NCBI GenBank assembly: GCA_964534375.1
Contig: CAZHPN010000042.1
Location: 1 to 36,612, forward strand
Reading direction: 5' to 3'
DNA from: an uncultured bacterium
GTDB lineage: Bacteria > Lernaellota > Lernaellaia > Lernaellales > Lernaellaceae
DNA length: 36,612 bases
The position numbers and the translations under genes are program-made. The notes below the pieces were generated by a model that was given only the letters and a program-made list of their open reading frames with translations, was not told the origin of the DNA and did no database searches. Positions 462 through 34,018 of this stretch are shown one piece after another. Numbering within the stretch: the stretch's first letter is position 1; each line of letters opens with the position of its first letter.

Positions 462-520
462 CGCCGTCGTCGATCGGGGGCGCGGCCTGCGCCGAGTTGC
501 CGCCGAAAAGGGGGGCGAAA

Positions 521-3037
521 ATGAGCACGATGCCCGCCGGCAGTGCGGCGTACAAAATCAAAGAGCCCAAAGGCCTATCGCCGCGCATCAAATGGTTGCG
601 CGACTATTTCTTTCAAGGCGCCGAACGCGCGTGGAACAACGAGTTCACGGCCTGGACGACGGGCGCCCCGTGGGACACGCAGTTCAACGAATTGTCGTTT
701 TACATTGTGCCGGAAAACTACCTCTTGATGCAGACCTTCGTGAAGTCGTTCGCGCAGGCGGCGCTGCCGGTCAAGCTCGATCCGCAATTCTGGTCGTGGA
801 GCCTGCCGGAGCGACGCGCCTGGTTCGTCAAAGAGGTCATGATTAATTACGTGCCGCAGGAAATTCTGCCGGGCGACCTCGTGGCCGGCGCGCGCTTCAA
901 CCTCGAGTCGTCGATGTGTCTCGACAGGAAAGAAGCCGCCGTGCGCGACCGTCGCGTCTACGGCAAACGCGGCGCGCGCGCCAAAATGAAATGGTTCCAC
1001 GATCACGGTTACGGCAACGCCGGCGCCACCAGCGGCCACCTCATCCCCGGCTACGAACGCGCGCTGAAGATCGGCTGGCAGGGCATCCACGCCGACCTCT
1101 CCGCGAAATACGCCGGGCTCACGCCGCGTGAGCAGCAAGGACCGCGGGGCGCGCAGCTTCGCGCGATGCTCACCGCCGCGACGATGCCGCGCGACCTCGC
1201 CGCGAAATACGCCGCGCTCTGCCGCGAACTCGCCGCGCAGGAAGAGACCGCCCCGCGCCAAAAAGAACTGGCCCAGATGGCGGCGAATCTCGACCGCGTG
1301 CCGTGGGCGCCGCCCGTAACGTTCTGGGAAGCGGTGCAGGCGTTGTGGCTGACGCACATGCTCGTGATGAGCGACGAAAACTACCCGGGCCCGGGCGTCT
1401 CGTTTGGCCGCATCGACCAATATCTCTTGCCCTACTGGGAGCGCTCACTGGCGGACGGGATGGACCGCGAGTTCGGCAAGGAAGTCCTCCGCTGTTTCTG
1501 GGTGCACGCGAACACGGTCTACGACGCCCTGATCCGCGCCGGCCACCAGGGCATCACCGCCGGCTTCGGCCAATTGATCACGCTCTCCGGCGTCGGCGCC
1601 GGCGGCCGCGACATGACCAACGACCTGACCTGGGCGATGCTCGAAGTCATCGACGAAATGACGCCGATCCTTGAACCCAAGCCCAACGTCCGCCTGCACC
1701 GCGGCACGCCCGACGAGTTGCTCGATAAGGTCGTGGACATGGTCGCCGCCAGCCAGGGCGCGCCGTTCCTGCTCAATTTCGACGAACGGTCGATGGCCGG
1801 CATGATGCGCGAGGCACGGCGCGCCGGCCTCGAACATCTGATCCATAACGACAACGTCCACGACTATGCGCCGGTCGGCTGCCTCGAAAACACCATGGTC
1901 GGCAACGACCGTTCGGGCACGGTCGACAACAACCTCAACCTGCTCAAAGCGGTCGAGTTGGCGCTCAACAACGGCCGCGATCTCGTCGCCTTTGTCGACC
2001 CGGTGACCGGCAAAACGGAGGCCATCCGCCGGGACGGCCCCTGCACCGGCGAAGCCGCCACATTCCGCACCTGGGACGATTTCTGGCGCGCCTTCGCGAC
2101 CCAGTTGCGTTTCATCGTCAAAAAATGCGTCGATTTATATGAGATATCCGAAGCGCTTCGCGCCGAATATTTCCAGACGCCGTACCTGTCGTGCCTGGTC
2201 AAAGGCTGCGCCGAACAGGGCCGCGACGTCACGCAGGGCGGCGCCGAAATCGCCCTGACGACGATGGAAGGCGTCACCTTCGCGACGACGGTCGATTCGC
2301 TCCTCGCCGTCAAAGCGCTCGTCTTCGACCAGCATGCCTGCACGATGGCCGAATTGCGTCAGGCGCTCCGGGACAACTGGCGCGGACACGAGGTCTTGCA
2401 GGCCCGCGCGAGATTCAAAACGCCCAAATACGGCCGCGACGACGACGAAGCCGACGCCCTTGCCCGCCGCGTGATGGACCTCTGGGCTGAAGAGGTCTGG
2501 AAATACAAGACCGCCTCCACCGGCCGCCAATTCCGCCCCGGCATGCTCAGTTGGAATTATTGGGTCGGCGACGGCTTCGTCCTCGCCGCCAGCCCCGACG
2601 GCCGGCCGCAAGGCCAGTTTCTATCAAATGCGATATGTCCCTCGAACGGCGCCGACATCAACGGGCCGACCTCGAACGCCAACTCGGTCGGCAAAGCGCT
2701 CGGCGGCAAGGTCGCCGACGGCAAAGGCGACTGGGGCGAATATCTCAATAATCTGCCGAACGGCGCGAGCCACACGATCACTTTCCACCCGGCGATCGTC
2801 AACGACCCGGAACATCGCGCGAAATTCAAGGCGTTTCTGCGCGGCTACGGCGAAAACGGCGGCACGGCCCTGCAGATCAACATGCTCGACGAGGGCCTGC
2901 TCCGCGAGGCGCAGCGACACCCGCAGGATTACCGCCACCTGCTGGTGCGCGTCACCGGTTACAACGCCTACTTCACGAGCATCGGCAAGGAATTGCAGGA
3001 CGAAGTCATCGCACGCTTGAGCCACAACAAACTTTAG
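521..3037 (+). CDS. Glycyl radical enzyme (PFL-like/PFL2 family), substrate unknown
   Basis: About 838 aa. Gly-radical loop LLVRVTGYNAYF at the C-terminus, single-Cys loop PVGCLEN, plus SFGRIDQYL, PKYG.DDDEAD and ASPDGR motifs. ATG at 521 follows AAGGGGGG. Confidence 0.93.
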   Translation: MSTMPAGSAAYKIKEPKGLSPRIKWLRDYFFQGAERAWNNEFTAWTTGAPWDTQFNELSFYIVPENYLLMQTFVKSFAQAALPVKLDPQFWSWSLPERRAWFVKEVMINYVPQEILPGDLVAGARFNLESSMCLDRKEAAVRDRRVYGKRGARAKMKWFHDHGYGNAGATSGHLIPGYERALKIGWQGIHADLSAKYAGLTPREQQGPRGAQLRAMLTAATMPRDLAAKYAALCRELAAQEETAPRQKELAQMAANLDRVPWAPPVTFWEAVQALWLTHMLVMSDENYPGPGVSFGRIDQYLLPYWERSLADGMDREFGKEVLRCFWVHANTVYDALIRAGHQGITAGFGQLITLSGVGAGGRDMTNDLTWAMLEVIDEMTPILEPKPNVRLHRGTPDELLDKVVDMVAASQGAPFLLNFDERSMAGMMREARRAGLEHLIHNDNVHDYAPVGCLENTMVGNDRSGTVDNNLNLLKAVELALNNGRDLVAFVDPVTGKTEAIRRDGPCTGEAATFRTWDDFWRAFATQLRFIVKKCVDLYEISEALRAEYFQTPYLSCLVKGCAEQGRDVTQGGAEIALTTMEGVTFATTVDSLLAVKALVFDQHACTMAELRQALRDNWRGHEVLQARARFKTPKYGRDDDEADALARRVMDLWAEEVWKYKTASTGRQFRPGMLSWNYWVGDGFVLAASPDGRPQGQFLSNAICPSNGADINGPTSNANSVGKALGGKVADGKGDWGEYLNNLPNGASHTITFHPAIVNDPEHRAKFKAFLRGYGENGGTALQINMLDEGLLREAQRHPQDYRHLLVRVTGYNAYFTSIGKELQDEVIARLSHNKL

Positions 3038-3048
3038 ACGAGGCGCCC

Positions 3049-4065
3049 GTGGGCCGCACCACAGAACAAAACGAACCGACCGCGGTGATTCTCGAAATCC
3101 AGCGGATGTCCACCGAAGACGGGCCCGGCCTGCGCACGACGGTCTTTTTCAAAGGCTGCAGCCTGAAATGCGCCTGGTGCCACAACCCCGAAAGCCTGGC
3201 GCCCCAGCCGCAGACGCAGTGGCTCGCCTCGCGCTGCCTCGGCTGCAAGTTGTGCCTGGCGGCCTGCCCGAACGGCGCGCTGACCTGGGGCGCGGCGGGG
3301 CCGCTTATCGACCGTGCGCGTTGCCAGGGCTGCGGCGCCTGCGCGGCCGAATGCCCGTCGACGGCGATGGAGCTGCTCGGCAAACGCTGGACCGTGTCGG
3401 ACCTGATCGCCGAGGTCGCGAAGGACCGCGCGTATTTCGCGCAATCGACCGATGGCGGCGTCACCGCCTCGGGCGGCGAAGCGACGCTGCAAAGCGCCTT
3501 CGTCGCCGCGTTCTTCGCCGGGTTGCGCAAGATCGGCCTGCACACGGCGCTGGACACCTGCGGCCAGTGCGCGCCGGCCGCGCTCGAAGCGGTACTGCCG
3601 CACGCCGATCTCGTGCTCTACGATCTCAAGGACATCGACCCCGAACGCCACGCGCAGTTCACGGGCTGCGATAACCGCCGCATCATCGAAAACCTGCGCC
3701 GGGTCGTGCATTCGATGAAGCACAACGGCCGGCCGAAAGAGCTATGGATTCGCACGCCGATCATTCCCGGCGCGACGGACCGCGACGAGAATATCGCCGA
3801 ATTGGGCCGGTTCCTCGGCAAAAACCTGCGCGGCGTCGTCGCCCGCTGGGATTTGTGCTCGTTCAACAACCTGTGCCGCGACAAGTACGCGCGGCTCGGC
3901 CTCGAGTGGCCGTACAAAAACGAGCCGCTGCTCGAACGCGCAACGATGGAACGCCTGGCCGAGGTCGCGCGCGGCTCGGGCGTCGACGCGCGCGTGGTCC
4001 ACTGGAGCGGCGCCGTGCGGGCCGAAACGGACGCTGCGCCGGCCACGGAAGAAGGCGGTTGTTGA
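3049..4065 (+). CDS. Glycyl-radical enzyme activating protein (radical SAM with ferredoxin-like insert)
   Basis: DGPGLRTTVFFKGCSLKCAWCHNPES (CxxxCxxC), two CxxCxxCxxxCP motifs, GGVTASGGE and HTALDTCG; starts 11 nt after the GRE stop. Confidence 0.95.
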   Translation: MGRTTEQNEPTAVILEIQRMSTEDGPGLRTTVFFKGCSLKCAWCHNPESLAPQPQTQWLASRCLGCKLCLAACPNGALTWGAAGPLIDRARCQGCGACAAECPSTAMELLGKRWTVSDLIAEVAKDRAYFAQSTDGGVTASGGEATLQSAFVAAFFAGLRKIGLHTALDTCGQCAPAALEAVLPHADLVLYDLKDIDPERHAQFTGCDNRRIIENLRRVVHSMKHNGRPKELWIRTPIIPGATDRDENIAELGRFLGKNLRGVVARWDLCSFNNLCRDKYARLGLEWPYKNEPLLERATMERLAEVARGSGVDARVVHWSGAVRAETDAAPATEEGGC

Positions 4066-6517: not shown

Positions 6518-6552
6518 CAGTGAACAGGGAACAGTGAACGGTGAACAGTGGT
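6518..6552. repeat. Heptamer array (CAGTGAA-like, 5 units)
   Basis: CAGTGAA CAGGGAA CAGTGAA CGGTGAA CAGTGGT between the MFS stop and the C45 start. Confidence 0.75.
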
Positions 6553-15257: not shown

Positions 15258-15317
15258 ATTCCGCATTTGTCCGACATTCCGCATTCCGCATTCCGCATTT
15301 GTCCGACATTCCGCATT
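15258..15317. repeat. (ATTCCGC)n heptamer array containing a 28-bp direct repeat
   Basis: ATTCCGCATTTGTCCGACATTCCGCATT at 15258-15285 and 15290-15317; orientation is inverted relative to 14814-14841. Confidence 0.85.
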
Positions 15318-16425
15318 ACCCCACCAGCGCTGTTCCCAGCGCGATGCCCGCCGGGCTCGCCACCCAGCCCACGAGCACCATTCCCCATGCAATGCCGTAC
15401 GCCGGGTTATCCGATGATGTCTCGTCGCCGAACACCGCGAACAACGCCGTGGTGTAAACGCCGACGGTCGCGCCGTAGACCAAGAGAATCGGCAGGCCGA
15501 AGACGCCCGCGGCGAAGCGGTGCAAAAGATACAGCAAGGCCAGCGCGCCGAGGCCGCAGGCGGCGGCGCGATTCAGCCGCCGCCAGCCGAGGCGGCCGTA
15601 CAGCAGGCCCGCCCCCACCGCGCCCAGCAAGTGCGCCGCGCCGAACCAGCGCCAGTCGCGGGCGGAGGCGAGAATCGCCGTCTCGCCCGGCGCCCGCGAG
15701 ACCAGCACGAACAGCGCCGTGTCGGCGAACACCACCGCCGCGAGCGGCAGCAGCCGGCGCAGCATGGCGCCGATGGCGCCGGGGCGGCCGAGCGGCGGCG
15801 CGGTTCGGGCGAACGCCCCAGGAAGCAGGACAATTATGATATTCGAGCCGATCAGCGCCATGTCGAACGCCGCGACCGCCTCGGGCCGGCGCGCCGCCCA
15901 ACCGAGCAGGCTGGCGATCGAATAGATCGCCCCGGCGGTCGCGCCCGCGGCGAGGCCGCGCCGGTCCGCCGGCACGGCCAGCGAAAAGAGCGTCAACAAC
16001 GAAACGATGAGCAAGCCGAGCGCCAAGCCCAGCGGCGCAAAGGCGACGATCAGCGTGCCGCGCGAGGGCGCGAGCATCGCCCCGGCGGCCGCGCCGGCCG
16101 CGGCAAGCGACAACAGCCCCGCGGCGCGCGCGATCGCCCGCTGCGCCAGTTTGCGCCGGTCGATGAGCCGCCCTGCGAGCAGACTCCCCGCGATGCCGCC
16201 CAGCGCCAGCAACGCAAAGCCCGGCGCCAGGTCGCGTTCGCCGAGGCCGAGCGCCGCCGCCGCGCGCCGCAACAGGGCGTACTGCACGAAATTCACGTAA
16301 AAGATGAAGCTCGAAAAAAGCGCGTAGCAGGCGAGGAACGCGCCCGCGTAATGGCGAATGGCGAATGGCGAATGGCGAATTCCAGACGGCGTCGCGTCGG
16401 TAATTACCGGGCAATCACTTTCCAT
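15316..16425 (-). CDS. Multi-pass membrane protein, MFS-like
   Basis: About 11-12 hydrophobic segments and GSLLAGRLIDRRK (motif-A-like). ATG 16425 overlaps the upstream gene end; the start is uncertain. Confidence 0.65.
   Translation of the reverse strand: MESDCPVITDATPSGIRHSPFAIRHYAGAFLACYALFSSFIFYVNFVQYALLRRAAAALGLGERDLAPGFALLALGGIAGSLLAGRLIDRRKLAQRAIARAAGLLSLAAAGAAAGAMLAPSRGTLIVAFAPLGLALGLLIVSLLTLFSLAVPADRRGLAAGATAGAIYSIASLLGWAARRPEAVAAFDMALIGSNIIIVLLPGAFARTAPPLGRPGAIGAMLRRLLPLAAVVFADTALFVLVSRAPGETAILASARDWRWFGAAHLLGAVGAGLLYGRLGWRRLNRAAACGLGALALLYLLHRFAAGVFGLPILLVYGATVGVYTTALFAVFGDETSSDNPAYGIAWGMVLVGWVASPAGIALGTALVG
16350..16377. repeat. Perfect (AATGGCG)x4 heptamer array inside the 5' end of the membrane-protein ORF
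   Basis: Four exact copies, translated as IRHSPFAIRH on the minus strand. Confidence 0.9.
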
Positions 16426-18453: not shown

Positions 18454-18858
18454 CGAGTTGACGCTTCATCGACGGCGCAACGCGCGCCGCTCAAAGGGAA
18501 ATTCGTTGACCACAAAGCGCGGCGATTGTAAACAACCCGCGGTTCTTTTCCAAGGCTTTCGGCCTCGCGGCGGATTCGGCCGAGCGGCTGGGGCGCCGCC
18601 GGATAACGCCGCTTTGACTTCGGCCCCGGAATCCACTAGAAAAGCCGTGGAACCCGGTTCTTCCGGACCGGGGAAGCGTCCTTTGAGAAATTTGGCGGAA
18701 ATCTTCGCGCGCCGCCGCCGGCGTTTCGCCGATGACAGTCGCGCGAACGAGATTTATCGTATGTTTTGCATCGGGGACATCCGCCAGGATGTCCTCTTGT
18801 GATGGGGCGATTCGATCCATTCACCCTCCGCGCCGAACGCCGGCGCCGGGAGCGCAAG

Positions 18859-19470
18859 ATGAAGAGTTCCGGTCCGCCGCCGACGGTCATTCGGCGCCGC
18901 GCGAAAAGCGAACGCAGCCAGCCCGAACCCGCCAAGAAACCGACGGAAAAGTTCCACTTCGACCGCGACGCGTTCCGCGCCGCCCATCCGGCCGGCGAGG
19001 AAAATCCGTACCTGGATCGCGAGGCGATGCGCGATCGCCCGCCGGTCGACCCCAAGGCCGCCGCCGAACGGCCCAAGGGCGTCGTGCCGCCGCGGCGCAA
19101 CTACGCCCTCGTGGACGGCATCGATCCGGCGACGCTGTTCACGGCCTATCACCTTGGCGTGACGGAAGACAACCGTTACCAGTTGCAGAATCTGCACGAG
19201 GTCGCGCGGCGGTTTCGGACCTCGCCGGCGCGCATCAACGAAGCGCTCCGCGCCTACGAGATCGATTCCGAAACGGTGATGAACACGGACTTCGATATGG
19301 CGATGGCCCAGATCGACATCCGCGTCGCGCCGCCGGGCGTCAGCCGCAAGGCCTTGGCGCTGCAATTGTACGAGGACTTTCGCAGTTCGCCGCGCATCGT
19401 CCGCGATTGGGCCGCCGAGCTGCACAACGACGCCGAAGAGAACCGGCGCATTTTTGAAAAGTTGAAGTGA
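18859..19470 (+). CDS. Hypothetical protein (basic disordered N-terminus, globular C-terminal domain with a possible HTH)
   Basis: ATG after GGGAG; strong GC3 codon bias; NLHEVARRFRTSPARINEAL resembles a helix-turn-helix. Confidence 0.7.
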   Translation: MKSSGPPPTVIRRRAKSERSQPEPAKKPTEKFHFDRDAFRAAHPAGEENPYLDREAMRDRPPVDPKAAAERPKGVVPPRRNYALVDGIDPATLFTAYHLGVTEDNRYQLQNLHEVARRFRTSPARINEALRAYEIDSETVMNTDFDMAMAQIDIRVAPPGVSRKALALQLYEDFRSSPRIVRDWAAELHNDAEENRRIFEKLK

Positions 19471-19501: not shown

Positions 19502-20410
19502 ATGTCGAACATCTCTTTTCTCGATGGTCCCTTGCCGCGCGACGATTCGGCCGCGCGCCCGAGCGCCGGCGGCCCGGACGAATCTGCGGCCACCGTCCGA
19601 CTCACGATTCTCCGCGCCGGCGCCACGCACGCGCCGGCGCGGCTGTTCGGCGTCGACGAGAGCTGGCGGCGCGTCGAGATCCCGGCGCTGTTCGCGCTGA
19701 TCGAGCATCCGCGTTACGGCGCGACTTTGTTCGACACCGGCTACTCCACGCGTTTTTTCGAGGCGACGCGGGGTTTCCCCGACAGACTATATCGGTGGCT
19801 GACGCCGGTCGCGATCGGCGCCGACGAAAACGCCGGGCCGCAGTTGGCCCGCCGCGGCATACCGCCCGAGCAGATTCGCTGGATCGTCGTCTCCCATTTC
19901 GACCCCGACCACATCGGCGGCCTGCGCGATTTTCCGGGCGCCCGCTTCGTCTGCTCGTGGCGGGCCTGGCGTGCGATCGCCGGCAAGACCGGCCTCGCCG
20001 CGCTGCGCGAGCGCTTGCTGTGCGGTTTGTTGCCCGATGATTTTGCGGCGCGCCTGCACGTGCTGCCCGATCCGCACGGGCCGGCGATCGGCCCGTTGGG
20101 CCCGTCGCACGACCTGTTCGGCGACGGCTCGGTGCTTTTGGTCGCGTTGCCCGGCCACGCCCCGGGCATGCTCGGCGCGGTCGTCGCGACCGATCGCGGC
20201 GAGCAGACGTTGCTGTGCGCCGACGCCTGCTGGACCCGGCGCACGTTCGAGGACCCGCGCCGCCCCGCGGGCGTGCATCCGTTGTTGGCCAAGAACCGTA
20301 CGGCGCAGCGGGAGACCTACCGGTTGTTGCGCCGCCTGCGCGAAGAAATGCCGGGCGTGCAAATCGTGCCGTCGCATTGCCCGGAGACGTTTCGCTCACT
20401 CCAGTCGTGA
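19502..20410 (+). CDS. Metallo-beta-lactamase fold hydrolase (AHL-lactonase-like subgroup)
   Basis: LFDTGY, SHFDPDHIGG, DLFGDGS, LPGHAPG, ADACW and C-terminal PSHC. Confidence 0.88.
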   Translation: MSNISFLDGPLPRDDSAARPSAGGPDESAATVRLTILRAGATHAPARLFGVDESWRRVEIPALFALIEHPRYGATLFDTGYSTRFFEATRGFPDRLYRWLTPVAIGADENAGPQLARRGIPPEQIRWIVVSHFDPDHIGGLRDFPGARFVCSWRAWRAIAGKTGLAALRERLLCGLLPDDFAARLHVLPDPHGPAIGPLGPSHDLFGDGSVLLVALPGHAPGMLGAVVATDRGEQTLLCADACWTRRTFEDPRRPAGVHPLLAKNRTAQRETYRLLRRLREEMPGVQIVPSHCPETFRSLQS

Positions 20411-20660
20411 CCGGGAAATTGACCGGCGCCCGTCCCGGTATTTGCGAGAAGAACGCCCGCGGGGGGCGGTTGTCAGGAGCCGGCTCTCGATGTAAATATG
20501 GCGCCGATCCCGAATGGATTTTGTTGCCGAGCGTCGCCGAATTCGTCGCCCAGCCGTATTCGTCGCGCACGGCTGCGCAAAACGTGATAGACAGCGAGAT
20601 TCCGGAAAAGCGGGCGGCGCCGAATTTCGCATGCGCCGCGGGTCGAGGACGAGGAGCGAG

Positions 20661-22391
20661 ATGAGCCGAAAAAAGCGGCCGATAAATTGGGACAAGGCGC
20701 CGCTGGGGCGCGAGCCGGACCAGGCGATAGCCAAGAAGTTTGGCGTTTCCATCGACGCCGTGCGGAGTCAGCGGCGTAAACGCGGGATTCCGCTGGGCGC
20801 GCTGGACGGGCGGTTCAACCGCAAGGAATTCCCGCTCGCGGAAATGGGAACGATGACCGACGCGGCCCTGGCCGCCAAACACGGCGTCTCGGAAGAACTG
20901 GTCCAGCGGCGGCGCAAGGCGGCGGGAATTGCCGCATTCGATCCGCGCACGCGGCGGCAAATCGATTGGGACCGCGCCGGCCTCGGTTTGGAAAGCGACG
21001 CCGCCATCGCGCGGAAACTGGGAGTCCACAGCGTCACGGTGGCGATGCAACGGCGAAAGCGCGGCATTCCCCCGTATCGTCCGCCCAAAACGCAAAAAAT
21101 CAATTGGGACCTCGTCGGTCTCGGCAGCGAATCGGACGCGGCCATCGCGAAACAGCTCGGGGTCGCCGTGCACACCGTTTACAAACAGCGACGAAAGCGC
21201 GGCATCGCCGCGCTCCCGGCCGGCCGCCGGGCAAAGCAACGATCGGATCCGCGCCGAACGACGCAATTCGATTGGGACAACGTCGGCCTCGGCGTAGAAA
21301 GCGACGTGGCGATCGCGGCGAAGCTCCGCATCAGCCGCGAAATCGTTCGCCACCAACGGGTCAAACGCAATATTCCGCCGAGCCGGTATCGGCCGCTCGG
21401 TATCGACTGGGACGAGCAACCGCTCGGCAAACTCACGGACCGGGACCTTGCCGAAAAGCTCGGCTGCAGCGAAGCCGCCGTCTTTGTGCATCGGCAACAG
21501 CGCGGCATCCCGGCCTACCGGCCGCCGCGGCGGTTGGGCAACCTCTGGGACGAGCAGCCGCTCGGAAAAATCCTCGATCGCGAGTTGGCCAAACGGCTCG
21601 GCTGCTCCCGCTCCGTCGTGGCCGCCCAGCGGCGAAAGCGCGGCATTCCGCCCTGCCCGTACTCGCCGCTGGGCGTGAATTGGGACGAACAACCGCTCGG
21701 CAAAGTTTCCGATGCCGCGCTCGCGAAACGGCTCGGCGTTGGCGAACTGGCCGTCCGGCGCCAACGGATCAAACGCGGCATTGCCCGACTCGAACCGCCG
21801 CCGCCGGCGCCGGGCGTCAACTGGGACGAACAATCGCTGGGCCAGGTCGCCGACGGGGAGATCGCCAAACAGCTCGGCTGCAGCAAAGCCGTCGTCGCCC
21901 ACCAGCGGCGCAAGCGCGGCATTCCGCCGTGCGCGTCGCCGCTCGCCATCAACTGGGACGAGCAACCGCTGGGCAAGATTCCGGATCGAACGCTGGCCCG
22001 ACGGCTGGGAGTCGACGCGGCGGCCGTCTGGCGCCAACGAGCCAAGCGCGGCCTGCCGCCGGCAGAGCCGATCGGCATGAATTGGGACGAGCAACCGCTC
22101 GGGAAGATGCCGGATCGGGCGCTGGCCGAGCGCCTCGGCTGCGCGCTCACGACGGTCGCCAGCGCCCGGCGGTTGCGCGGAATCCCGAGTTGGACGTCGC
22201 GCCAGCGCGAAGAAGAAGACCGCCGGTTTTGGGACGAGCAGCCGCTGGGGCGTTACCCGGATCAGACGCTCGCCGACCGGCTCGGCGTTCCCGTGGCGAC
22301 CGTCGAAAAAGAACGAATCGCCCGCGGCATTCCCAACTTGAAAGTCAACAATCCGCTGACGAGACTTCGGCGTCGCGACCGGCCGACGTGA
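20661..22391 (+). CDS. Tandem-repeat protein with 12 HTH-like units; putative nucleic-acid binding protein
   Basis: ATG after GAGGAG; 12 units of consensus (I/V)NWDEQPLGKxxDxx(L/I)AxxLGxSxxxVxxQRxKRGIP; strongly basic; no TM segment or signal peptide. Confidence 0.85.
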   Translation: MSRKKRPINWDKAPLGREPDQAIAKKFGVSIDAVRSQRRKRGIPLGALDGRFNRKEFPLAEMGTMTDAALAAKHGVSEELVQRRRKAAGIAAFDPRTRRQIDWDRAGLGLESDAAIARKLGVHSVTVAMQRRKRGIPPYRPPKTQKINWDLVGLGSESDAAIAKQLGVAVHTVYKQRRKRGIAALPAGRRAKQRSDPRRTTQFDWDNVGLGVESDVAIAAKLRISREIVRHQRVKRNIPPSRYRPLGIDWDEQPLGKLTDRDLAEKLGCSEAAVFVHRQQRGIPAYRPPRRLGNLWDEQPLGKILDRELAKRLGCSRSVVAAQRRKRGIPPCPYSPLGVNWDEQPLGKVSDAALAKRLGVGELAVRRQRIKRGIARLEPPPPAPGVNWDEQSLGQVADGEIAKQLGCSKAVVAHQRRKRGIPPCASPLAINWDEQPLGKIPDRTLARRLGVDAAAVWRQRAKRGLPPAEPIGMNWDEQPLGKMPDRALAERLGCALTTVASARRLRGIPSWTSRQREEEDRRFWDEQPLGRYPDQTLADRLGVPVATVEKERIARGIPNLKVNNPLTRLRRRDRPT

Positions 22392-22440: not shown

Positions 22441-23508
22441 CTATGCGATCAGCGGGTGTGTCGTGCGGTGGCTGCCGATCCAGTTGTGCAGCGTCGCGTG
22501 CGGCGCGCCGTCGACATAGTCGATCCGTAAATACGGTCGAATATAGACGCGGCCGAGCGACGCGATGTCCAGCGACATGATTTCCGTCCACGATCCGGTG
22601 TTGAAATATTCGCGGTCCGGCGAAAGGTGCCGGTAATCGATCTTGTGGCTGTGGCCGAGCGTGACGAGGCGATAGTGCGTACGCCGCAGGATCGTCTGCG
22701 CGCTGCGTTCGAGCGAACGGTGCGACATGGCGTCGGCGAAACGCAGCGGCGACAAGCGAAATTCGCGCCGCCGATACGGGTCGCGCGAGAAGCGGTTGAG
22801 CGCCCAGAAACGAACCACTCCCAGCACAATGCGCCAAAAGAAAAAATGGTCGTTCCAAAACGCCCAACGCAAATACTTGCCAAACGGCCGCACCTTGTCG
22901 ATGATCGGCCGCCGCTGCTTGAGCGCCCGCAGATATTGAATCACGAACAGGCTGCCGTAGGGGAGTTTCAACAGCTCGACGCCGTCCGGGCCGCGGCGCG
23001 TGTAATCGCGCATGTCGAAGTTGAAAATGAATTCGTACTGGTGGCCGTGCGCGATCAGGATGCCGTCGGCCGACCAACTCGTCTCGATGCGCACGTGCCG
23101 CCCGACGCTGTCGCGCAACGTCTTTTGCACGCCGGGAAACAGCAGCGCGGCGTCGTGATTGCCGACGATCAGCGTGAGCTGCTTGCGGTCGCGCCGCACG
23201 AAATCGCGCAACGCCGCGAACACCTCGGGGTGGCCGGCGACGATCTGCCGCATCTGCGCGACCGCGACCTGTTCGGTGATCGCCTCCGTGGCCCTGCCGT
23301 CCACCGGGATTTCCAACAGATTGAAAAAATCGCCGTTGACGATCAGTTCCACGTCGTCGGCCGCGAAATCGCCGCTGGAAAAATGCGCGAGAAACTCGAT
23401 GAGCAACTCGTCTTCGAGAAAATCTTCGAAGGGATTGCGCCGGCCGTCCGGCAGGCGCGCGCCCGTGTGCATGTGCAGGTCGCTGATGACGAGCTTGAGT
23501 TTTCTCAC
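22441..23508 (-). CDS. Calcineurin-like metallophosphoesterase (LpxH-like superfamily)
   Basis: ISDLH, NGDFF, GNHD, HGHQY, GHSH and NTGSW motifs. Confidence 0.88.
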   Translation of the reverse strand: MRKLKLVISDLHMHTGARLPDGRRNPFEDFLEDELLIEFLAHFSSGDFAADDVELIVNGDFFNLLEIPVDGRATEAITEQVAVAQMRQIVAGHPEVFAALRDFVRRDRKQLTLIVGNHDAALLFPGVQKTLRDSVGRHVRIETSWSADGILIAHGHQYEFIFNFDMRDYTRRGPDGVELLKLPYGSLFVIQYLRALKQRRPIIDKVRPFGKYLRWAFWNDHFFFWRIVLGVVRFWALNRFSRDPYRRREFRLSPLRFADAMSHRSLERSAQTILRRTHYRLVTLGHSHKIDYRHLSPDREYFNTGSWTEIMSLDIASLGRVYIRPYLRIDYVDGAPHATLHNWIGSHRTTHPLIA

Positions 23509-24916: not shown

Positions 24917-27517
24917 TTACGGCGCGAGTTCCACCATCTGGAACGTCCGCGGCGGCACGGTCAACGGCACGTGGCAATGGCCGTTCGCATCGGGCGCGCA
25001 CGACAGCGGCGTCGCCGAGCCGTCGGTGAGGGAAATCGCGCTCAGTTTGGCTTGCGGCAGGTTGTAATTGGCCGGGTCGAACACGAGGTTGGCCTCGATC
25101 GCCTGATCGGCCGCGTTGGCGACGAGCAACGCCACGTTGTTTTCATACGGGTGGCGCCAGGCGGCGACCTGTAGCGGTTGTGCTTGCCATTGGCCGGCGT
25201 GGTCGCAACCGGACCCGTTGATCGAAAAATAGTACGAATACGAAAACGACGCGTTCGCCGGCGCGGGGTCGAGTTGCGGCGTCGGCTCCATGCGGCCGAG
25301 CGTCAAGTACGGCTGCGCCGGCGACGCGGTGCGCACCGACATCGCCGTGCGTAAAAAGGCGAGTTTATCCGGGTCCGCGCGGTGTACGGCGCCGTCGTAC
25401 TGCCAGCCGCGGTCCCATTGCGCGAGGCCCTGCCCCCAATCGGTCTGGAAGCCGCACGCGGTATGACCGGCCGTGCAGGCGGTCTTCGCGTTCAGCGACG
25501 GCAGCCAATCGAGGGGCGTGTTGAAATAGCTCAGTTCGACGACGCCGCCCCACACGTATTCGGCGGCCACGATCCAGTAAAACACATCGCCGAGGTCCTC
25601 GCTCACGGTCATCTTCCCGCCGGTTCGCACCGCGCCGAGGTGATGGCGCAGGTACGCCATGAGCGGAACCTGGACGGCCAGACCCGCCACGATCCAACCG
25701 TCCGCCCCGGTGAACGCCGGCGGCTGCGAGTTCGCGACCTTGTCGCGCAGCGGCCCGTCGCCCGAGGCGCCCAGATGCCAGAAGTCGACCAGGTCGGCGT
25801 AGGGCTCGGTCGCGTTTTCGGCGCCGTAGCGAAACCCGCGCGGGTTCGGCGTGCCGCACGGCGCGTCGAGGGCGTTGCGCGCGCCCTGCGCGTACCACTG
25901 GCCGGCGCCCGCCGGATGGCCGTCGGCGCGGCCGCACAGCCCCGCGTAGTCGCCGTAGTTCGCGACGGCGAAGCCGAAATCGAAATACAGCGCATCGAGC
26001 GGCCGGCCGAGGGCGTTGACGACCAGCGAGTCGCGCCAGCGCCAGAAATCGGCGACCGTCGCACTGGCCGGATCGAGCGTGAACACCCATCCGCCGGTGA
26101 GCGGATCCTGGGCGCTGAAAGCGCCCGGGCGGCCCGTTTCATCGACGAGCACGCTGTTGGCGAGATAGGCCGGATCGTGCGGATCGTCGCCCGGCGGCGG
26201 CGAAAAACCGTGCCACCCGGGAACGGCCGAGTCGATCGCAATATCGTAAAGAAAGAGGGCCGCGAGGTCGCCTTGGCCCTGCGCCTGGGCGACGTTATCC
26301 GCCGTCGAGCCGACGAACGGCGCCCAGAAAATTTCGTCGTGGCCGGCCTGCTGCATCGACAAGTAGCGGGCCGGTTCCGGATCGCCCAGCCGATGGAAAT
26401 CCCAGCCGAGCACGAACAGCAACTGCGCCGCGGAGAGTCCGCCGGTCAGCGCCGTCCGAAATCCCTCGATCCACGGGCGCTGATCCACCCGCGACGAGAC
26501 GCCGAAAACGCTCGCGCCGAGCCGTTCGAAAAATTCCTGCTCGGCCGGCGCGCGCTGCGCCAGCGGGGCGGCCGCCCAGGGCTGCCCGTCGGACCACGTG
26601 CGGTACACGTCCGCCGCTTCGTCCCACGCGCCGACGTCGAGCCAGTGCAGCACCGTCGGATACGCGACGGCGAAGGCCCCGCGTTGGGCGGCGCCGGCGA
26701 CGTCCGAATTGAGATGCTCGACGCGCCAGACCGGTATCGCCTGCTTCGCGCTGACGTCGGTGTCGAGTTCGAAATCTTTGACGGCGAACGTCGGGTCGGC
26801 CGTATACAGCAACACGCCGCCCAGCCCCGGATGCATGTAGGCGACCAGTTGCGCCATCGCCTCGTGGCCCAGCGGATAATGGTGGGATCGCAAACTGTAT
26901 GACCCGTCGCGAATCTCGTCGGCCAGCCGCGCCAACGGTTGATTCATCAGCACGCCGCCTTCCCACGACGTCAAGTACGTGTCGCCCGAGCCGTCGCCGG
27001 ACAGCGGCGCCAGCCCGTAAAAAATCGGATAGCGCAGGCTGTAGATTTGCCGGCCGCCGAGTTGCGCGATCGTCGCCGTGGCGCTCGCCTCTGCCGCGCC
27101 GTCCGTCAGACGCCAATCGGCGGTCACGGTCGGACCCGCCGGCAAGGCCCAAACGATTTGCAGATGGTCCGCGGCCAGGCGGCGAAATTCGGCCTTCGGC
27201 AGCGACACCGGCATTTGCACGACTTGCAGGAATTTGCCCGACGCGTCTTTGCCGATTTGGAAAATCTCGAACGGATCGCCGGGCGCGGGCGGCGTCGACG
27301 CGGCGGCGCCGAGCAGGTTCAGCGAGGGATTGCGCCGGAGGTCGGCGACCTGCGCAACCCGGCCGGTCGCGTTGTCGAAGGCGACGGAAATCAGCCCGTT
27401 GCTCAGCACGGTCGTCGACGACGCCCCGGCGCCGGACGCCCGGTGGGCGTTGAGGCGCCCGCAGGCGGCCAGCGCCGCGAACAGCATGACGAAAAACCAG
27501 CGAAAACCGGGCCGCAT
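24917..27517 (-). CDS. Large lipoprotein, putative glycoside-hydrolase-like (DUF6259-like)
   Basis: Lipobox LAAC after MRPGFRWFFVMLFAA; beta-rich N-terminus; W.EAADVYRTW...QPW, LDALYFDF and YGAENATEPY. The start could be 27541. Confidence 0.6.
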   Translation of the reverse strand: MRPGFRWFFVMLFAALAACGRLNAHRASGAGASSTTVLSNGLISVAFDNATGRVAQVADLRRNPSLNLLGAAASTPPAPGDPFEIFQIGKDASGKFLQVVQMPVSLPKAEFRRLAADHLQIVWALPAGPTVTADWRLTDGAAEASATATIAQLGGRQIYSLRYPIFYGLAPLSGDGSGDTYLTSWEGGVLMNQPLARLADEIRDGSYSLRSHHYPLGHEAMAQLVAYMHPGLGGVLLYTADPTFAVKDFELDTDVSAKQAIPVWRVEHLNSDVAGAAQRGAFAVAYPTVLHWLDVGAWDEAADVYRTWSDGQPWAAAPLAQRAPAEQEFFERLGASVFGVSSRVDQRPWIEGFRTALTGGLSAAQLLFVLGWDFHRLGDPEPARYLSMQQAGHDEIFWAPFVGSTADNVAQAQGQGDLAALFLYDIAIDSAVPGWHGFSPPPGDDPHDPAYLANSVLVDETGRPGAFSAQDPLTGGWVFTLDPASATVADFWRWRDSLVVNALGRPLDALYFDFGFAVANYGDYAGLCGRADGHPAGAGQWYAQGARNALDAPCGTPNPRGFRYGAENATEPYADLVDFWHLGASGDGPLRDKVANSQPPAFTGADGWIVAGLAVQVPLMAYLRHHLGAVRTGGKMTVSEDLGDVFYWIVAAEYVWGGVVELSYFNTPLDWLPSLNAKTACTAGHTACGFQTDWGQGLAQWDRGWQYDGAVHRADPDKLAFLRTAMSVRTASPAQPYLTLGRMEPTPQLDPAPANASFSYSYYFSINGSGCDHAGQWQAQPLQVAAWRHPYENNVALLVANAADQAIEANLVFDPANYNLPQAKLSAISLTDGSATPLSCAPDANGHCHVPLTVPPRTFQMVELAP

Positions 27518-27602
27518 CGAATTCTGCCTGTTGACTCCCATTCGCCTTGTTCGGCGAAGAGCGAATTTTATCAACAAACCGGCGCGAGATATAGCGGCGT
27601 CG

Positions 27603-30848
<3,246 letters not shown>

Positions 30849-30870
30849 CGCCGCAGCCCCGCGCCAAGGG

Positions 30871-31167
30871 CGAGTGACGAGTTACGAATGACGAATGACG
30901 AGTGGCGAATGACGAATGGCGAATGGCGAATGGCGAATGACGAATCGGTCTTATAGGACCTATATGTCCTATAGGGCCTATACGTCCTATGTCATCGTGG
31001 GGCGCAATAGCGCCACCTCCGACCTGTAAGAGCGCCTTTCCAGGCGCGATTTCACCGATCGCGCCCGGAAGGGCGCTCTTACAGCCTCTCACTTCTGACT
31101 TCTGTCTTCTGTCTTCTGACTTCTTCATTCGGCATTCCGCATTCCGCATTCGCCATTCCGCATTCCC
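30871..31167. repeat. Composite repeat element between imuB and dnaE2
   Basis: 11 CGAATG(A/G)-like units (30871-30947), 4 ATAGGACCT-like units (30953-30988), a hairpin with 27-bp arms (31024-31084), 5 (A/T)CTTCTG units (31091-31125) and 6 CATTCCG-like units (31126-31167). Confidence 0.92.
31024..31084. repeat. REP-like inverted doublet
   Basis: CTGTAAGAGCGCCTTTCCAGGCGCGAT, 7 nt loop, ATCGCGCCCGGAAGGGCGCTCTTACAG; 25 of 27 positions complementary; GTAA-GAGCG head resembles GTAG-family REPs. Confidence 0.8.
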
Positions 31168-32652
31168 CTACTCCACCTGCCCCTGCACAAACCACCGCCG
31201 GACCCCCGCATCGTAGTAAACCCAAAGCAGGCAGCCGTTCTGCGTTTCCAAAAAGTAATAGCGCCGGTGCGTTTCGCGCCGCTGCCAGCCGCCGGAAACG
31301 ATGTACGGCCCCCACGTTTGCAGCACCGCGCCGCATTGCAGGCTGCGAATGCTCCAACTGTCCGGCTCGGGGCGCGCGCGCGGCCCCTGCGGCGCCGGCT
31401 GCGCGAACACGCGCCGGATCAACGTCGGCGGCGCGGCGGCGCGCGGCTCGGCAAAGGCCAGATGCTCCAGCGGCTCCCAGACGAAGCGCGCCTCGGGCAG
31501 ATGGCCCTCGGTCAGCCGCGCCCGCAACACCGCGGCGTCGCCGAGTTCGGCGCGCAAGCGAGCCAGCGCGCGATCCGCCGCGGCCAGGTCGCGGCGCGGC
31601 TTTTCGAAAAACAATTCGAGCTGCCGCCGCTCGGCCGGCGCGGCGTGGGCGGTCAGGCCGAGTTCTGCGGCCGGCGCGGGCAGCGGCGCGGCTTCGAGGC
31701 GCAGCCGCACGAGATCGAGAATCAACGCGTCGTCGAGCGTCGGCTCGGCGGGGCGGATGCGGTCGGTGCGCGGCTCGGCCCCCTCCAAGGCAAACCGGAT
31801 TTCCAATTCGCGCAGCGCCGCCGCTCGTTCGGCGAGGCGGTAAAGCAGCGGGTGCAAATGCCGGCGAATCAGGAACAGCAGCGCGACGGCGTTCTCTTCG
31901 GACTCATCGAGAATCGCCGTCTCCGCGATCGGCTCGAACGGCGGCGCGGGCACGAGCGGCTCGTGGCCCAAACCGGCCGCCAGCGCGTGCAGTTTCGCCG
32001 CCTCCGGGCCGAAACGGCGGCGCACCCCCTGCGGCGGCAGTTTCAGAAAATCGCCGACCGTGCGAACGCCCAGCTTGTCGAGGGTCGCACGCAGGTCCGC
32101 GTCGACCGCCAGCGCCGCCAACGAGGTGCGGCGCAGCGCGGCTTCTTCGTCCGGCGCGCCGGCGAAGACCAGCGCGCCCTGCCGCGATTTGGCGACCGCG
32201 TAAACGGCGAAGCGCCGGAAGCCGACGACGACCGTCGCCTGCCGCCCGCGTTCGACCAGCGCCTGGTGGATCGCTCGCGCCCACGCGCTGGCCGAAGCGA
32301 AAAGCAGCGCCAGCCCCTTGCCGCCGAGCCAGAACACGCCGGGCTCTGCCGCCGAAATCTCGACGTCCGGCGAAAAGCGGCGCAACTCGTCGGCGAGTGC
32401 GTCCACCTCGGCCGCGATCTCGCCGGCGGGGACTTCGGCCGCCTGCAAGTCAGGCGCGAGGCCGAGCCCCTGGTCGTAGCGCATGCCGGGCGCGACGCCG
32501 AGCCGCCGCGCCTCGCGCGTGGCCCAGAGAATCTCGCCCTGCGGCTTGTCCTGCGCCACAACCGCCGCCGGCCGGCCGAGCCACTCGGGCCGGCGCGCCA
32601 GCAATAGCTGTAGCGGCAGCGCGGGGAGGCTAACACAAGCCAGGCGGTCCAT
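31168..32652 (-). CDS. imuB: ImuB, inactive Y-family polymerase homolog
   Basis: Y-family fold lacking the catalytic acidic motif (RLACVSLP, FSPDVE); clamp-binding QLELF; C-terminal GPYIVSGGW...RRYY; lies between imuA and dnaE2. Confidence 0.9.
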   Translation of the reverse strand: MDRLACVSLPALPLQLLLARRPEWLGRPAAVVAQDKPQGEILWATREARRLGVAPGMRYDQGLGLAPDLQAAEVPAGEIAAEVDALADELRRFSPDVEISAAEPGVFWLGGKGLALLFASASAWARAIHQALVERGRQATVVVGFRRFAVYAVAKSRQGALVFAGAPDEEAALRRTSLAALAVDADLRATLDKLGVRTVGDFLKLPPQGVRRRFGPEAAKLHALAAGLGHEPLVPAPPFEPIAETAILDESEENAVALLFLIRRHLHPLLYRLAERAAALRELEIRFALEGAEPRTDRIRPAEPTLDDALILDLVRLRLEAAPLPAPAAELGLTAHAAPAERRQLELFFEKPRRDLAAADRALARLRAELGDAAVLRARLTEGHLPEARFVWEPLEHLAFAEPRAAAPPTLIRRVFAQPAPQGPRARPEPDSWSIRSLQCGAVLQTWGPYIVSGGWQRRETHRRYYFLETQNGCLLWVYYDAGVRRWFVQGQVE

Positions 32653-33277
32653 TGTAGGCAGCCTCCCGCCCCCAACCGGGACCCTGCTGTTTGTCTTTGA
32701 TCGCGCGAAAGCGGCAGAAGAAGCGGCCGTCCGGCAGGCGCTGGCGTTCGCTCTGCCCGCGCAGCGAGACCAGCGACCCGGTGGACGGCGCGTCCGCCGA
32801 TTTTTCGGTCAGCAGCAGAATGGCGATATCATGTTTCTGCGCCAGGCTCGCCAGCCGCGACTGGAGCGGCGTCGGCACGTCGCCCTCGCCCAGATCGAGG
32901 ACCAGCAGGCCGAACGCGCCCGAGCGGGCCAAGCGGTCCGCCGCGCGCGCGCCGGCTTTGTCGTCCGGGCAACGGACGACCGGCAGCGCCGCCAGATCGA
33001 CGCCGCTCGCCGCGACGTCCGGCGGGTAGAATCCGCTCGCGGCGCCGCCGAGCCAGGCCGCGGTCTCGCCCTCGCGCTGCGCGTCGAGAATGGCCTGGCA
33101 AGCGAGCGTCAGCGTCGCGGAATTGCCGCGGCCGGACAGTTCGACCAGCCGCCCCGCCAGTTCCGCCCGCGACAAGCCCGCGGTCGACGCCGGCCGCGGG
33201 CGCGCCCGCGGCCGCGCCTCCACCAGGCGCCGGCCCAATTGCTTCCGCACCGCCGCGGTTCGTTCGTTGGCTTTCAT
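32630..33277 (-). CDS. imuA: ImuA / RecA-like accessory protein
   Basis: GRLVELSG with a degenerate Walker A (GNSATLT), FYPPD, GVDL and LARSGAFGLLVLDL; position in the lexA-imuA-imuB-dnaE2 cassette. Confidence 0.85.
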   Translation of the reverse strand: MKANERTAAVRKQLGRRLVEARPRARPRPASTAGLSRAELAGRLVELSGRGNSATLTLACQAILDAQREGETAAWLGGAASGFYPPDVAASGVDLAALPVVRCPDDKAGARAADRLARSGAFGLLVLDLGEGDVPTPLQSRLASLAQKHDIAILLLTEKSADAPSTGSLVSLRGQSERQRLPDGRFFCRFRAIKDKQQGPGWGREAAYNGPPGLC

Positions 33278-33296
33278 TTGTTTTCTTCCCCCCGGA

Positions 33297-33412
33297 TGAA
33301 ATTTTAAACACAGAGAGCACAGAGGAAGGCACAGAGGGCACAGAGGATTTTTTTGCTTTTTTCTCTGTGTTCTCTGTGTTCTTTTCTCTGTGTCCTCTGT
33401 GTTTAAAATTCA
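33297..33412. repeat. Long imperfect palindrome built of CACAGAG units between lexA and imuA
   Basis: AATTTTAAACACAGAG (33300-33315) pairs with CTCTGTGTTTAAAATT (33395-33410); four CACAGAG units on the left arm and four CTCTGTG units on the right. Confidence 0.88.
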
Positions 33413-33415
33413 ATT

Positions 33416-34018
33416 TCACAGCATCCTCCTTATCTCAATTACCTTCCCCAAGATCGTCACCTCTTCCGGCGGCGGCGCGAGCGGCGGAAAATCCGGATTT
33501 TCGGCGTGCAATTCGATCCGCCCGCCGGGCAGGCGCAACCGCTTCACAGTCGCCTCGTCGCCCACCAGCGCCACGACGATCTCGCCCGCGTCGGCGGTCG
33601 GTTGGCGGCGGACGATGGCGATGTCCCCCGGCAAAATCCCCGCGCCGATCATGCTGGCGCCGCGCACGCGCAACGCGAACAACTCGCCGTGCGCCTCGCC
33701 CGCCAAAACCGGAAGATAGCCCTCCGGGTTTTCGATCGCCGCCGTCAACGCGCCGGCCTGCACCTGCCCGAGAAGCGGAATCAGCGCCGGCAGCCCCGGC
33801 CGCCCCGCCGGCAGCCGATACCCTCGCGCCTGCCCTTCCTCGCGCCCCAATCGGCCCGCGGCGATCAGTTTTTCCAGGTGCCGCCGCGCCGTCTCTACGG
33901 CCGAAAACCCCATCGCCGCCTGCACCTCCCGCACGGTCGGCGATTGCCCGGCCAGAATCCGTTCGCGCACGAACCGAAAAACCAACTCCCGCGTTTCCCC
34001 TTCCGGCGTGTACGCCAT
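33416..34018 (-). CDS. lexA: LexA repressor
   Basis: wHTH SPTVREV, Ala-Gly cleavage site VQAG, catalytic Ser in VRGASM and Lys in ATVKR; AAGGAGG RBS. Confidence 0.95.
   Translation of the reverse strand: MAYTPEGETRELVFRFVRERILAGQSPTVREVQAAMGFSAVETARRHLEKLIAAGRLGREEGQARGYRLPAGRPGLPALIPLLGQVQAGALTAAIENPEGYLPVLAGEAHGELFALRVRGASMIGAGILPGDIAIVRRQPTADAGEIVVALVGDEATVKRLRLPGGRIELHAENPDFPPLAPPPEEVTILGKVIEIRRML

Follow-up and report, generated by a model that had tools for sequence, protein, structure and literature searches.

How might a bacterium employ a protein that consists almost entirely of a dozen copies of one small helix-turn-helix (HTH) unit? This question is raised by a gene on contig CAZHPN010000042.1 (GenBank assembly GCA_964534375.1) of an uncultured bacterium of the phylum Lernaellota, whose genome assembly amounts to 6.3 Mb in 381 contigs and is 94% complete. 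The stretch analyzed here, which we refer to as the window, is 36,612 nucleotides long and encodes, on its forward strand, the 576-residue protein in question (P0001, hereafter the HTH-array protein). A first-pass annotation, made from the letters of the sequence alone, had described this protein as 12 tandem HTH-like modules with hypervariable recognition-helix residues, and had proposed it as a candidate modular DNA reader. The interpretation that we favor, to which we assign a probability of roughly 0.55, is that of a stand-alone, strongly basic array of twelve minimal HTH modules, contacting double-stranded DNA at many places over a long stretch.

Tandem HTH modules are already familiar from homing nucleases, which they direct to their targets, and from a few regulators. 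Stand-alone proteins of 9–19 HTH units form a nameless family of thousands of members. Below we describe the unit and its predicted fold, the family to which it belongs, the ways in which the array might act on DNA, and its genomic setting.

Anatomy and predicted fold of the repeat unit

The claim of 12 tandem units is upheld by a hidden Markov model (HMM) built from the units, which detects 12 of them in the open reading frame (ORF) at 57–74 bits each. The same HMM matches only 3 further ORFs among the 78,449 six-frame segments of the genome, which encodes four paralogues with 12, 9, 9 and 3 units, or 33 units altogether. A regular-expression pass over the protein recovers W-D anchors and R-[GN]-[IL] ends, eleven of each. 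The units are 43–56 amino acids (aa) long, recur with a period of mostly 44–48 aa, and are connected by short, Pro/Arg-rich linkers. The W-D scaffold, which had been ascribed to every unit, is present in 11 of them, whereas unit 2 represents a W-D-less subtype (…ELGTMTD…AGI…) found twice in each 9-unit paralogue. Across the 33 units of this genome a G, a D and an R are invariant, a further six positions (L, A, G, V, G and I) are conserved in at least 90% of the units, and the mean column identity is 54%. The protein as a whole is strongly basic, with an isoelectric point (pI) of 11.0 and a net charge of +52.

At the DNA level, Tandem Repeats Finder detects no repeat in the gene, and the nucleotide identity between units does not exceed 73%, indicating that the unit duplications are old and have been kept at the protein level. 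This also qualifies the two waves of duplication that had been read from the sequence: units 3–5 and 6–12 do cluster apart, but the duplications are old, and the same subtypes recur in the paralogues, so that the subtypes predate this gene copy. The nearest relatives of unit 11 are the penultimate units of the paralogues.

Profile searches assign the units to the HTH class without placing them in a specific known family. The Pfam families matched by the protein are generic HTH families only, led by HTH_23 (68.6 bits against a cut-off of 24.6, E 3e-19), HTH_AsnC-type (57 bits against 27, E 1.7e-15) and HTH_17 (47.2 bits against 27, E 2.7e-12); these are whole-protein scores summed over the repeats, and the single matching stretches span 20–30 residues. 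NCBIfam and PHROGs likewise return families labelled HTH or 'DNA binding protein', and an enzyme family emerges from none of the Pfam, NCBIfam and PHROGs scans, in agreement with the earlier statement that the protein lacks a catalytic domain.

Structure prediction concurs with these assignments. An AlphaFold2 model of units 6–9, for which an in-register alignment of 36 four-unit stretches served as input, has a mean predicted local distance difference test score (pLDDT) of 91.4 and a predicted template modelling score (pTM) of 0.51. Each unit is modelled as a short W-D-E turn, a P-L-G bridge, an 8-residue helix (D-x-x-L-A-x-x-L), a 3-residue turn and a 10-residue helix, the two helices occupying positions 13–20 and 24–33 in every unit with pLDDT above 90. 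The full-length AlphaFold2 model has a mean pLDDT of 74 and a pTM of 0.31, with linkers below 50 (among them residues 189–201, the linker before unit 5), and the ESM Atlas model of the sequence has a pTM of 0.18. This combination of confident units, low pTM and low-confidence linkers is best described, as far as the models go, as beads on flexible linkers rather than a rigid solenoid, just as had been envisaged in the first-pass annotation.

A comparison of the four-unit model with 48,161 PDB representatives yields a best Z-score of 4.4. Setting aside two longer, two-domain rows, the top matches have Z-scores of 3.4–4.4 over 34–47 residues, with root-mean-square deviations (rmsd) of 1.5–3.4 Å. 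They are mostly single HTH DNA-binding domains, such as those of FapR, NiaR, Lrp/AsnC and GcrA, and include DNA-bound structures of Tn3 resolvase, a mycobacteriophage repressor and the sigma-54 RpoN domain. A PDB sequence search with the whole protein returns 0 matches at E<=1.

The likeness to the sigma-54 RpoN-box that had been noted is real but weak. The unit profile aligns with PDB RpoN domains over 21 residues (G-V-x-x-x-T-V-A-K-Y-R-E-x-L-G-I-P; E 0.033–0.054, 16–17 bits), and the structural match has a Z-score of 3.7 over 46 residues at 24% identity. Sigma54 families are absent from the 25 Pfam families shown and from the NCBIfam matches, and we rejected membership in the RpoN-box class, the resemblance being confined to one helix. 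More generally, the C-terminal HTH of Fis/TyrR and the RpoN-box share with the unit the pattern (I/L)A-x-x-LG-(V/I)-x-x-x-x-V-x-x-x-R-x-x-x-G-I, a recognition helix followed by G-I-P, and NCBIfam HTH_TypR, summed over the units, reaches 32.6 bits (cut-off 30). However, the Fis/TyrR and RpoN domains each occur once, at the C-terminus of a larger regulator or of sigma-54, and their matches to the array are weak; the array unit differs from them in the W-D-x-x-P-L-G turn in front of the HTH and in its 12-fold repetition.

A large family and its fusions

Units of the form W-D-x-x-P-L-G ... R-G-I-P, judged by profile searches, define a large unnamed HTH-array family. An exhaustive search with the profile of the 33 units among 1.84 billion cluster representatives retrieved 8,521 of them at E<=1e-3, 3,580 at 1e-10 and 707 at 1e-30. 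The homolog search that had been proposed for this protein thus bore fruit, in that the relatives carry 1–19 units and include fusions to GIY-YIG nucleases, helicases and sigma region 4. Among 181 family proteins examined, whose unit counts cover this whole range, 125 are covered by units along their whole length, and the other 56 contain a non-unit stretch of 100 aa or more. Their 1,087 units conserve the G, D and R at 98–99%, and the unit period across the family peaks at 44–48 aa. Full-text searches turned up no published paper on this family, and Pfam holds no dedicated model for it.

The fusions suggest, at the level of domain architecture, how the module is used elsewhere. A word-indexed search recovered 50 relatives, the best with about 37% identity over more than half the query and up to 50% locally; superfamily 2 (SF2) helicase domains are present in 8 of the 50 and sigma-70 region 4 in some. 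A Pfam scan of 25 of the 56 proteins with non-unit stretches identified SF2 helicases in 5, sigma-70 region 4 in 4, further HTH domains only in 5, and nothing in the other 11. Two metagenome proteins of about 800 aa (P0009 and P0011) have four units in mid-protein, and the flanks of P0009, about 415 aa on the N-terminal and 205 aa on the C-terminal side, match no Pfam family at E<=1e-7. A search for relatives of 1,009–2,880 aa returned one match, a hydrogenase-like protein with HTHs, the candidates being crowded by chance matches.

Among cultured phages, tblastn matched 7 of 50,697 records, of which 6 are Vibrio phage records. The matching gene in these six bears the annotation homing endonuclease or GIY-YIG nuclease, except in two duplicate GenBank entries that call it a 'hypothetical protein'. 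Two of the records, eugene 12A10 and 1.187.O, were inspected: the unit-bearing nuclease gene adjoins the terminase genes, and in the encoded enzymes 4–5 units, which the unit HMM detects at E 4.4e-28 and 1.1e-20 and which have a period of about 46–48 aa, come after a GIY-YIG domain (E 3.5e-10 and 4.9e-11). Wider scans of viral and named genomes used a degenerate DNA pattern for W-D-E-Q-P-L-G. Of the 14 viral metagenome loci retrieved, 8 contain true units, in one case on a helicase; among the matches listed from named genomes the figure is 2 of 118 loci, which gives no usable taxonomic range. P0001 alone retrieved no related loci from viral contigs. At the level of fold, 31 predicted structures of viral proteins resemble the four-unit model at E<=1e-3; those that carry names include endonucleases, one of the LAGLIDADG type, transposases and a 'D5 protein'.

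The closest known analogs are the phage GIY-YIG homing endonucleases of the I-TevI/Seg type with NUMOD modules, in which serial small DNA-binding modules on an extended chain read a long site, as those of the array would. The enzymes of Vibrio phages eugene 12A10, helene 12B3, 1.187.O and 1.170.O go further, in that their 4–5 units after the GIY-YIG domain are of the array's own type. In contrast to these enzymes, the HTH-array protein lacks a nuclease domain, has 12 units instead of 4–5, and is chromosomally encoded. NUMOD1 and NUMOD3 are absent from the best 25 of the 32 Pfam families for this protein (E<=10; those listed reach E 0.067), and NUMOD models have no match at E<=0.01 in two of the phage GIY-YIG enzymes. 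Dunin-Horkawicz et al. (2006, PMC1564403) state that GIY-YIG homing enzymes carry 'different patterns of NUMODs' C-terminal to the GIY-YIG domain, and that I-TevI has an extended binding domain ending in an HTH.

A comparable plan is also found in eukaryotic proteins, in which consecutive modules occupy adjacent stretches of the major groove, though no sequence relationship of these to the array emerges from the fold comparisons made here. Eukaryotic tandem HTH arrays include the Myb R1R2R3 repeats, the Psq repeats of Pipsqueak and the bipartite HTH of paired and Tc1-mariner proteins, with 2–5 three-helix units. Two of these types surface in the fold comparisons: the Mos1 transposase is matched with a Z-score of 4.3 (77 residues aligned, rmsd 13 Å), and the viral matches of the four-unit model extend to an 'HTH psq-type' protein at E 3e-3.

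Possible modes of action on DNA

If the array binds DNA as we propose, the W-D-x-x-P-L-G turn would cap the two-helix HTH and the second helix of each unit would be inserted into the major groove, with the unit-specific N-cap and first two turns of that helix giving the units differing base preferences. The invariant Arg of the second helix and the R-x-x-R-G-I-P tail could provide backbone contacts common to all units, and the short Pro/Arg-rich linkers would place adjacent units on adjacent sites. With no enzyme domain of its own, such an array would act by occupancy, perhaps to repress, silence, mark or protect a target that is long or reiterated. The module may have originated in the toolkit of mobile elements, with the same unit type apparently targeting phage GIY-YIG homing nucleases and SF2 helicases, and the family was probably gained by transfer in this genome and then expanded to four paralogues.

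The residues that would confer such preferences had been termed hypervariable. They are indeed the most variable folded positions, but the term overstates the case, as other surface positions are nearly as variable across the family. Among this genome's 33 units, entropies of 2.65–3.34 bits are found at the four residues preceding the conserved Val and the two following it, as against 1.6–2.6 bits at other varying folded positions, the highest in-fold values being those of columns 26–28, 31 and 32. In the model, the four residues form the N-cap and first turn of the second helix, and the two after Val its second turn. We take them to be motif positions 11–14, 16 and 17 of the standard HTH numbering; positions 11–13, 16 and 17 are the usual base-contacting face of the HTH. 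Over 75 unit pairs with at least 55% identity, the ratio of non-synonymous to synonymous change (pN/pS) is 1.05 at the variable positions and falls to 0.53 at the remaining exposed ones and to 0.09 in the core, which is under strong purifying selection.

The last unit departs from this picture. It is 76–90% identical between paralogues, and in each of the four its second helix retains the residues PV(A/E)T-V-(E/A)K, with pN of 0.14–0.20 and pS of 0.37–0.48 in 5 of the 6 paralogue pairs (0.02 and 0.17 in the closest pair, C9-D3). This retention may be seen as a counter-weight to the notion that the variable positions are unconstrained. Together with the nuclease fusions, it speaks for some specificity, whereas the long array and the near-neutral evolution of the contact positions speak for low specificity.

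Taken to its extreme, low specificity would make this a DNA-coating or nucleoid-associated protein, in which many weak contacts and the charge would result in cooperative binding with little regard to sequence, compacting or silencing DNA in the manner reported for the phage T5 protein D5. The strongly basic composition, the invariant Arg and R-x-x-R-G tail in every unit, and the variable positions at pN/pS ~1, as if unconstrained, would all fit such a protein. PHROG 323 ('transcriptional regulator, D5-like') matches over two units at E 1.7e-13, and the 'D5 protein' among the viral fold matches (E 6e-5) is from a Vibrio phage; the T5 record annotates D5 itself as DNA-binding and needed for replication and late transcription. 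The parallel between the array and T5 D5/PHROG 323 lies in repeated HTH-like modules that bind DNA (in the array, putatively) without catalysis. However, D5 is 255 aa long, with about four modules and a role in phage replication and late transcription, and scores only 1.5 and 7.4 bits against the unit profile, so that its unit is a different subtype; D5 was accordingly rejected as a direct sequence relative of the unit. Furthermore, the same unit type aims GIY-YIG homing nucleases, which require long specific sites, and the last unit retains its second-helix residues despite the synonymous divergence noted above for 5 of the 6 pairs. A housekeeping nucleoid protein would also be expected in relatives, but 0 of 16 carry HTH units. 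We regard simple coating as a rather unlikely account; if the units do bind without specificity, the family would constitute a new class of horizontally spread DNA-coating proteins.

At the other extreme is the analogy to TALE (transcription activator-like effector) or zinc-finger arrays, which stands as regards the tandem modules but fails in that the units are about 50% identical HTH domains rather than near-identical repeats, and no recognition code is evident. TALE repeats are 33–35 aa long, near-identical but for two residues, and stack into a rigid superhelix in which each repeat reads a single base. The array shares with them only the logic of tandem modules, its units being 43–56 aa HTH domains joined by flexible linkers. 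Membership among TALE-type readers was rejected on the 54% mean column identity, the surface-wide variation, the HTH fold and the pTM of 0.31, and a TALE-like code of one unit to one subsite is not supported beyond the tandem plan. If the units nevertheless read consecutive subsites, the family would represent a natural, compact and shuffle-able DNA-targeting scaffold, and the phage nucleases with the same units would offer matched protein-target pairs from which the rules could be learned.

Several considerations weigh against our preferred interpretation of multi-point binding along an extended stretch of DNA. 1) DNA binding is itself what we infer from the fold, the charge and the fusions. 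2) Twelve units end to end would cover ~100 bp or more, which to our knowledge exceeds any known specific site; such a reach argues for reiterated or low-specificity targets and not for one unique site. 3) Across the 1,087 units of 181 proteins, the second-helix positions reach 3.6–3.8 bits, and several other surface positions 3.4–3.7 bits. 4) At the variable positions pN is 0.61 and pS 0.58, both near saturation, so that the ratio of ~1 signifies freedom to change and not positive selection; it suits relaxed constraint as well as diversification. 5) The small size of the domain keeps the structural Z-scores low, and they are not significant alone, though they agree with the profile matches; Foldseek finds no match of the four-unit model in the PDB at E<=1e-3. 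6) No neighboring gene is common to the four paralogues, and context hence gives no role. 7) Contigs from RNA libraries of 3 metatranscriptome studies are identical to parts of the gene, but such libraries may hold DNA, and the matches fit transcription without proving it; the flanking genes have no cover in the same runs, an absence that is uninformative.

One might also ask if the array reads DNA at all. It could instead bind RNA or proteins, serve as a decoy for factors that sense HTH domains, or be a functionless, decaying remnant of a homing nuclease from which the nuclease domain has been lost. The weak structural matches include SelB on selenocysteine insertion sequence (SECIS) RNA and other non-DNA rows, and the patchy distribution is reminiscent of a selfish element. 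The decoy version gains some plausibility from a 2026 preprint that describes a retron that senses the HTH fold of T5 D5, with the D5 HTH protein binding the retron's multicopy single-stranded DNA (msDNA) (PMC13405049). On the other hand, the core is under the purifying selection described above (pN/pS 0.09), the frames of the three largest paralogues are intact (the 3-unit copy being shortened by a TAG), intact members of the family number in the thousands, and the RNA-library contigs match the gene. We judge these options to be decidedly improbable.

Paralogues, genomic context and other features of the window

The first-unit and last-unit types are common to all four paralogues, and the number and order of the units between them differ, which suggests a common anchor combined with paralogue-specific reading. 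Their distribution is narrow: the HTH-array protein has no match in 40 other genomes sampled, 7 of them from the same family, and units are absent at E<=1e-5 from 16 other genomes of the phylum. The surroundings in the window are those of an ordinary chromosome, with genes for an efflux pump, UbiA, a metallo-beta-lactamase-fold protein (19502–20410) and serS. The array gene lies between the metallo-beta-lactamase-fold gene and a calcineurin-like phosphoesterase gene (22441–23508, - strand). The phosphoesterase-serS pair is kept in 4 of the 4 relatives inspected, and in two of these relatives that were followed further (G004 and G001) the genes beyond this pair map to another contig of the present genome (C59), which places the array gene exactly at a synteny break.

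This neighborhood is pertinent to the idea that the array is the DNA-targeting half of a split system, i.e. an unfused form of the known fusions that would recruit a nuclease or helicase in trans. Helicase- and GIY-YIG-fused forms exist, and both flanking genes encode folds, metallo-beta-lactamase and calcineurin-like phosphoesterase, that include nucleases. Elsewhere in the genome, the paralogue pair on contig C13 sits between a kinase-nSTAND1-WD40 gene and a type IIG restriction-methylase gene, and the C61 paralogue adjoins a TPR-CHAT gene. However, the paralogues share no neighbor, the conservation of the phosphoesterase-serS pair in relatives without the array indicates that the phosphoesterase is not a dedicated partner, and 125 of the 181 family proteins are units throughout. 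A split system thus appears improbable.

The C13 locus itself resembles a defense island (C13:38394-49504; locus L152, 2395-13505): a 1801-aa kinase-nSTAND1-WD40 protein is followed by the 9- and 3-unit genes in tandem and, at the end, by a 957-aa MmeI-type type IIG restriction-methylase (PADLOC E 4e-280), with an insertion sequence (IS)-like fragment upstream. PADLOC also reported mad1, mad2 and mad6 here, but an assignment to MADS defense was rejected: the methylase is better explained as type IIG (4e-280 versus 1.7e-22), the kinase and HTH matches are generic, and an identification as MAD1 fails, the NCBIfam model NF047737 scoring 20 bits against its equivalog cut-off of 80 and the PADLOC mad1 match at 2.6e-16 lacking any one stretch that passes by itself. 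PADLOC has no match among the window neighbors of the array gene.

A further reading concerns the short tandem repeats with which this genome (G000) is replete, namely 530 heptamer arrays (at least 4 copies, 61 motifs) and 319 nonamer arrays. The HTH-array protein could be a modular reader in which each unit has its own subsite, with inner units shuffled among the paralogues on a shared anchor unit so as to create new long specificities, and the heptamer and nonamer arrays as its targets. The heptamer arrays are, like the protein family, almost confined to this genome among 17: a count of (CGGGATT)4, allowing <=2 mismatches, gives 110 occurrences here, 9 in the relative G006 and 0 in the remaining 15 genomes of the phylum, and all 87 occurrences of (AACAGTG)4 in the phylum are in this genome. 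On the other side, G006 has heptamer arrays but no HTH units, and the near-private status of both arrays and units rests on one lineage only. We give this proposal very little credence; were such modular reading true, phage GIY-YIG enzymes that share the units and have inferable sites could yield the recognition code.

With regard to the gene itself, the open frame around it spans 20514–22391 on the + strand, and ATG 20661 is the likely start, as judged from sequence features: a GAGGAG precedes it, and the starts of three paralogues of the same genome agree, sharing MS[RG]KK with the W-D motif within a few residues. Between 20300 and 22600 we found no sigma-70-like promoter and no clear terminator (4 terminator-like sites versus 3.0 expected). 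The GC content at third codon positions (GC3) is 0.77, comparable to that of the adjacent genes. The features of the array gene, its paralogues and the repeat arrays of the window are collected in Table 1.

Table 1. Coordinates of the HTH-array gene and its units, of the paralogues, and of tandem repeat arrays. Positions without a contig prefix are those of the window.
Feature	Position	Strand	Basis
Gene for the HTH-array protein (P0001), 576 aa	20661..22391, stop codon included	+	ORF and translation
GAGGAG, Shine-Dalgarno-like motif, 4 nt before ATG	20651..20656	+	read from sequence
Unit 1 (INWDKAPLG...RGIP), first-unit type of all paralogues	20682..20807	+	unit HMM, 71.4 bits
Unit 2, W-D-less subtype (FPLAEMGTMTD...AAGIAAF)	20820..20945	+	unit HMM, 57.2 bits
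Unit 3, GLG-ESD subtype	20961..21086	+	unit HMM, clustering
Unit 4, GLG-ESD subtype	21099..21224	+	unit HMM, clustering
Unit 5, GLG-ESD subtype, longest linker before it	21267..21392	+	unit HMM
Unit 6, EQPLG subtype	21402..21527	+	unit HMM; modelled, pLDDT >90
Unit 7, EQPLG subtype	21534..21659	+	unit HMM; AlphaFold2 model
Unit 8, EQPLG subtype	21675..21800	+	unit HMM; AlphaFold2 model
Unit 9, EQSLG	21816..21941	+	unit HMM; AlphaFold2 model
Unit 10, EQPLG subtype	21948..22073	+	unit HMM
Unit 11, EQPLG subtype	22077..22202	+	unit HMM
Unit 12, last-unit type of all four paralogues, after acidic EEEDRRF helix	22218..22343	+	unit HMM
Basic C-terminal tail (VNNPLTRLRRRDRPT)	22344..22388	+	translation; pLDDT <50
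9-unit paralogue	C13:44208-45548		
9-unit paralogue	C61:21443-22783		
3-unit paralogue, ended early by TAG	C13:45712-46242		
Tandem 7/9-mer arrays in the window	6518-6550, 15270-15299, 16350-16380, 30871-30990, 31087-31166, 33309-33403		

Some other features of the window deserve mention in their own right. Positions 27603–34018 hold an SOS mutagenesis-type cassette comprising LexA (33416–34018, - strand), a RecA-fold imuA-like protein (32630–33277), an imuB-like protein of the IMS family (31168–32652) and a dnaE2-like protein (27603–30848). The intergenic regions of this lexA/imuA-like/imuB-like/dnaE2-like cluster are filled with 7- and 9-mer arrays. Within the 1081-aa dnaE2-like ORF (- strand) there is a (CGGGATT)x14.6 array of 102 nt (28316–28417), followed by (GGACCTATA)x3.9 at 28429–28463. 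As 102 is a multiple of 3 and the HHH_6 match covers 142 residues against a 90-position model, the former array may be an in-frame insertion. Two ORFs, of 234 aa (18766–19470, + strand) and 886 aa (24917–27577, - strand), have a coding-like GC3 and match no Pfam family at E<=1e-5. Finally, at 497–4065, a pyruvate-formate-lyase-like glycyl-radical enzyme of 846 aa adjoins a radical-SAM activase with ferredoxin-type clusters.

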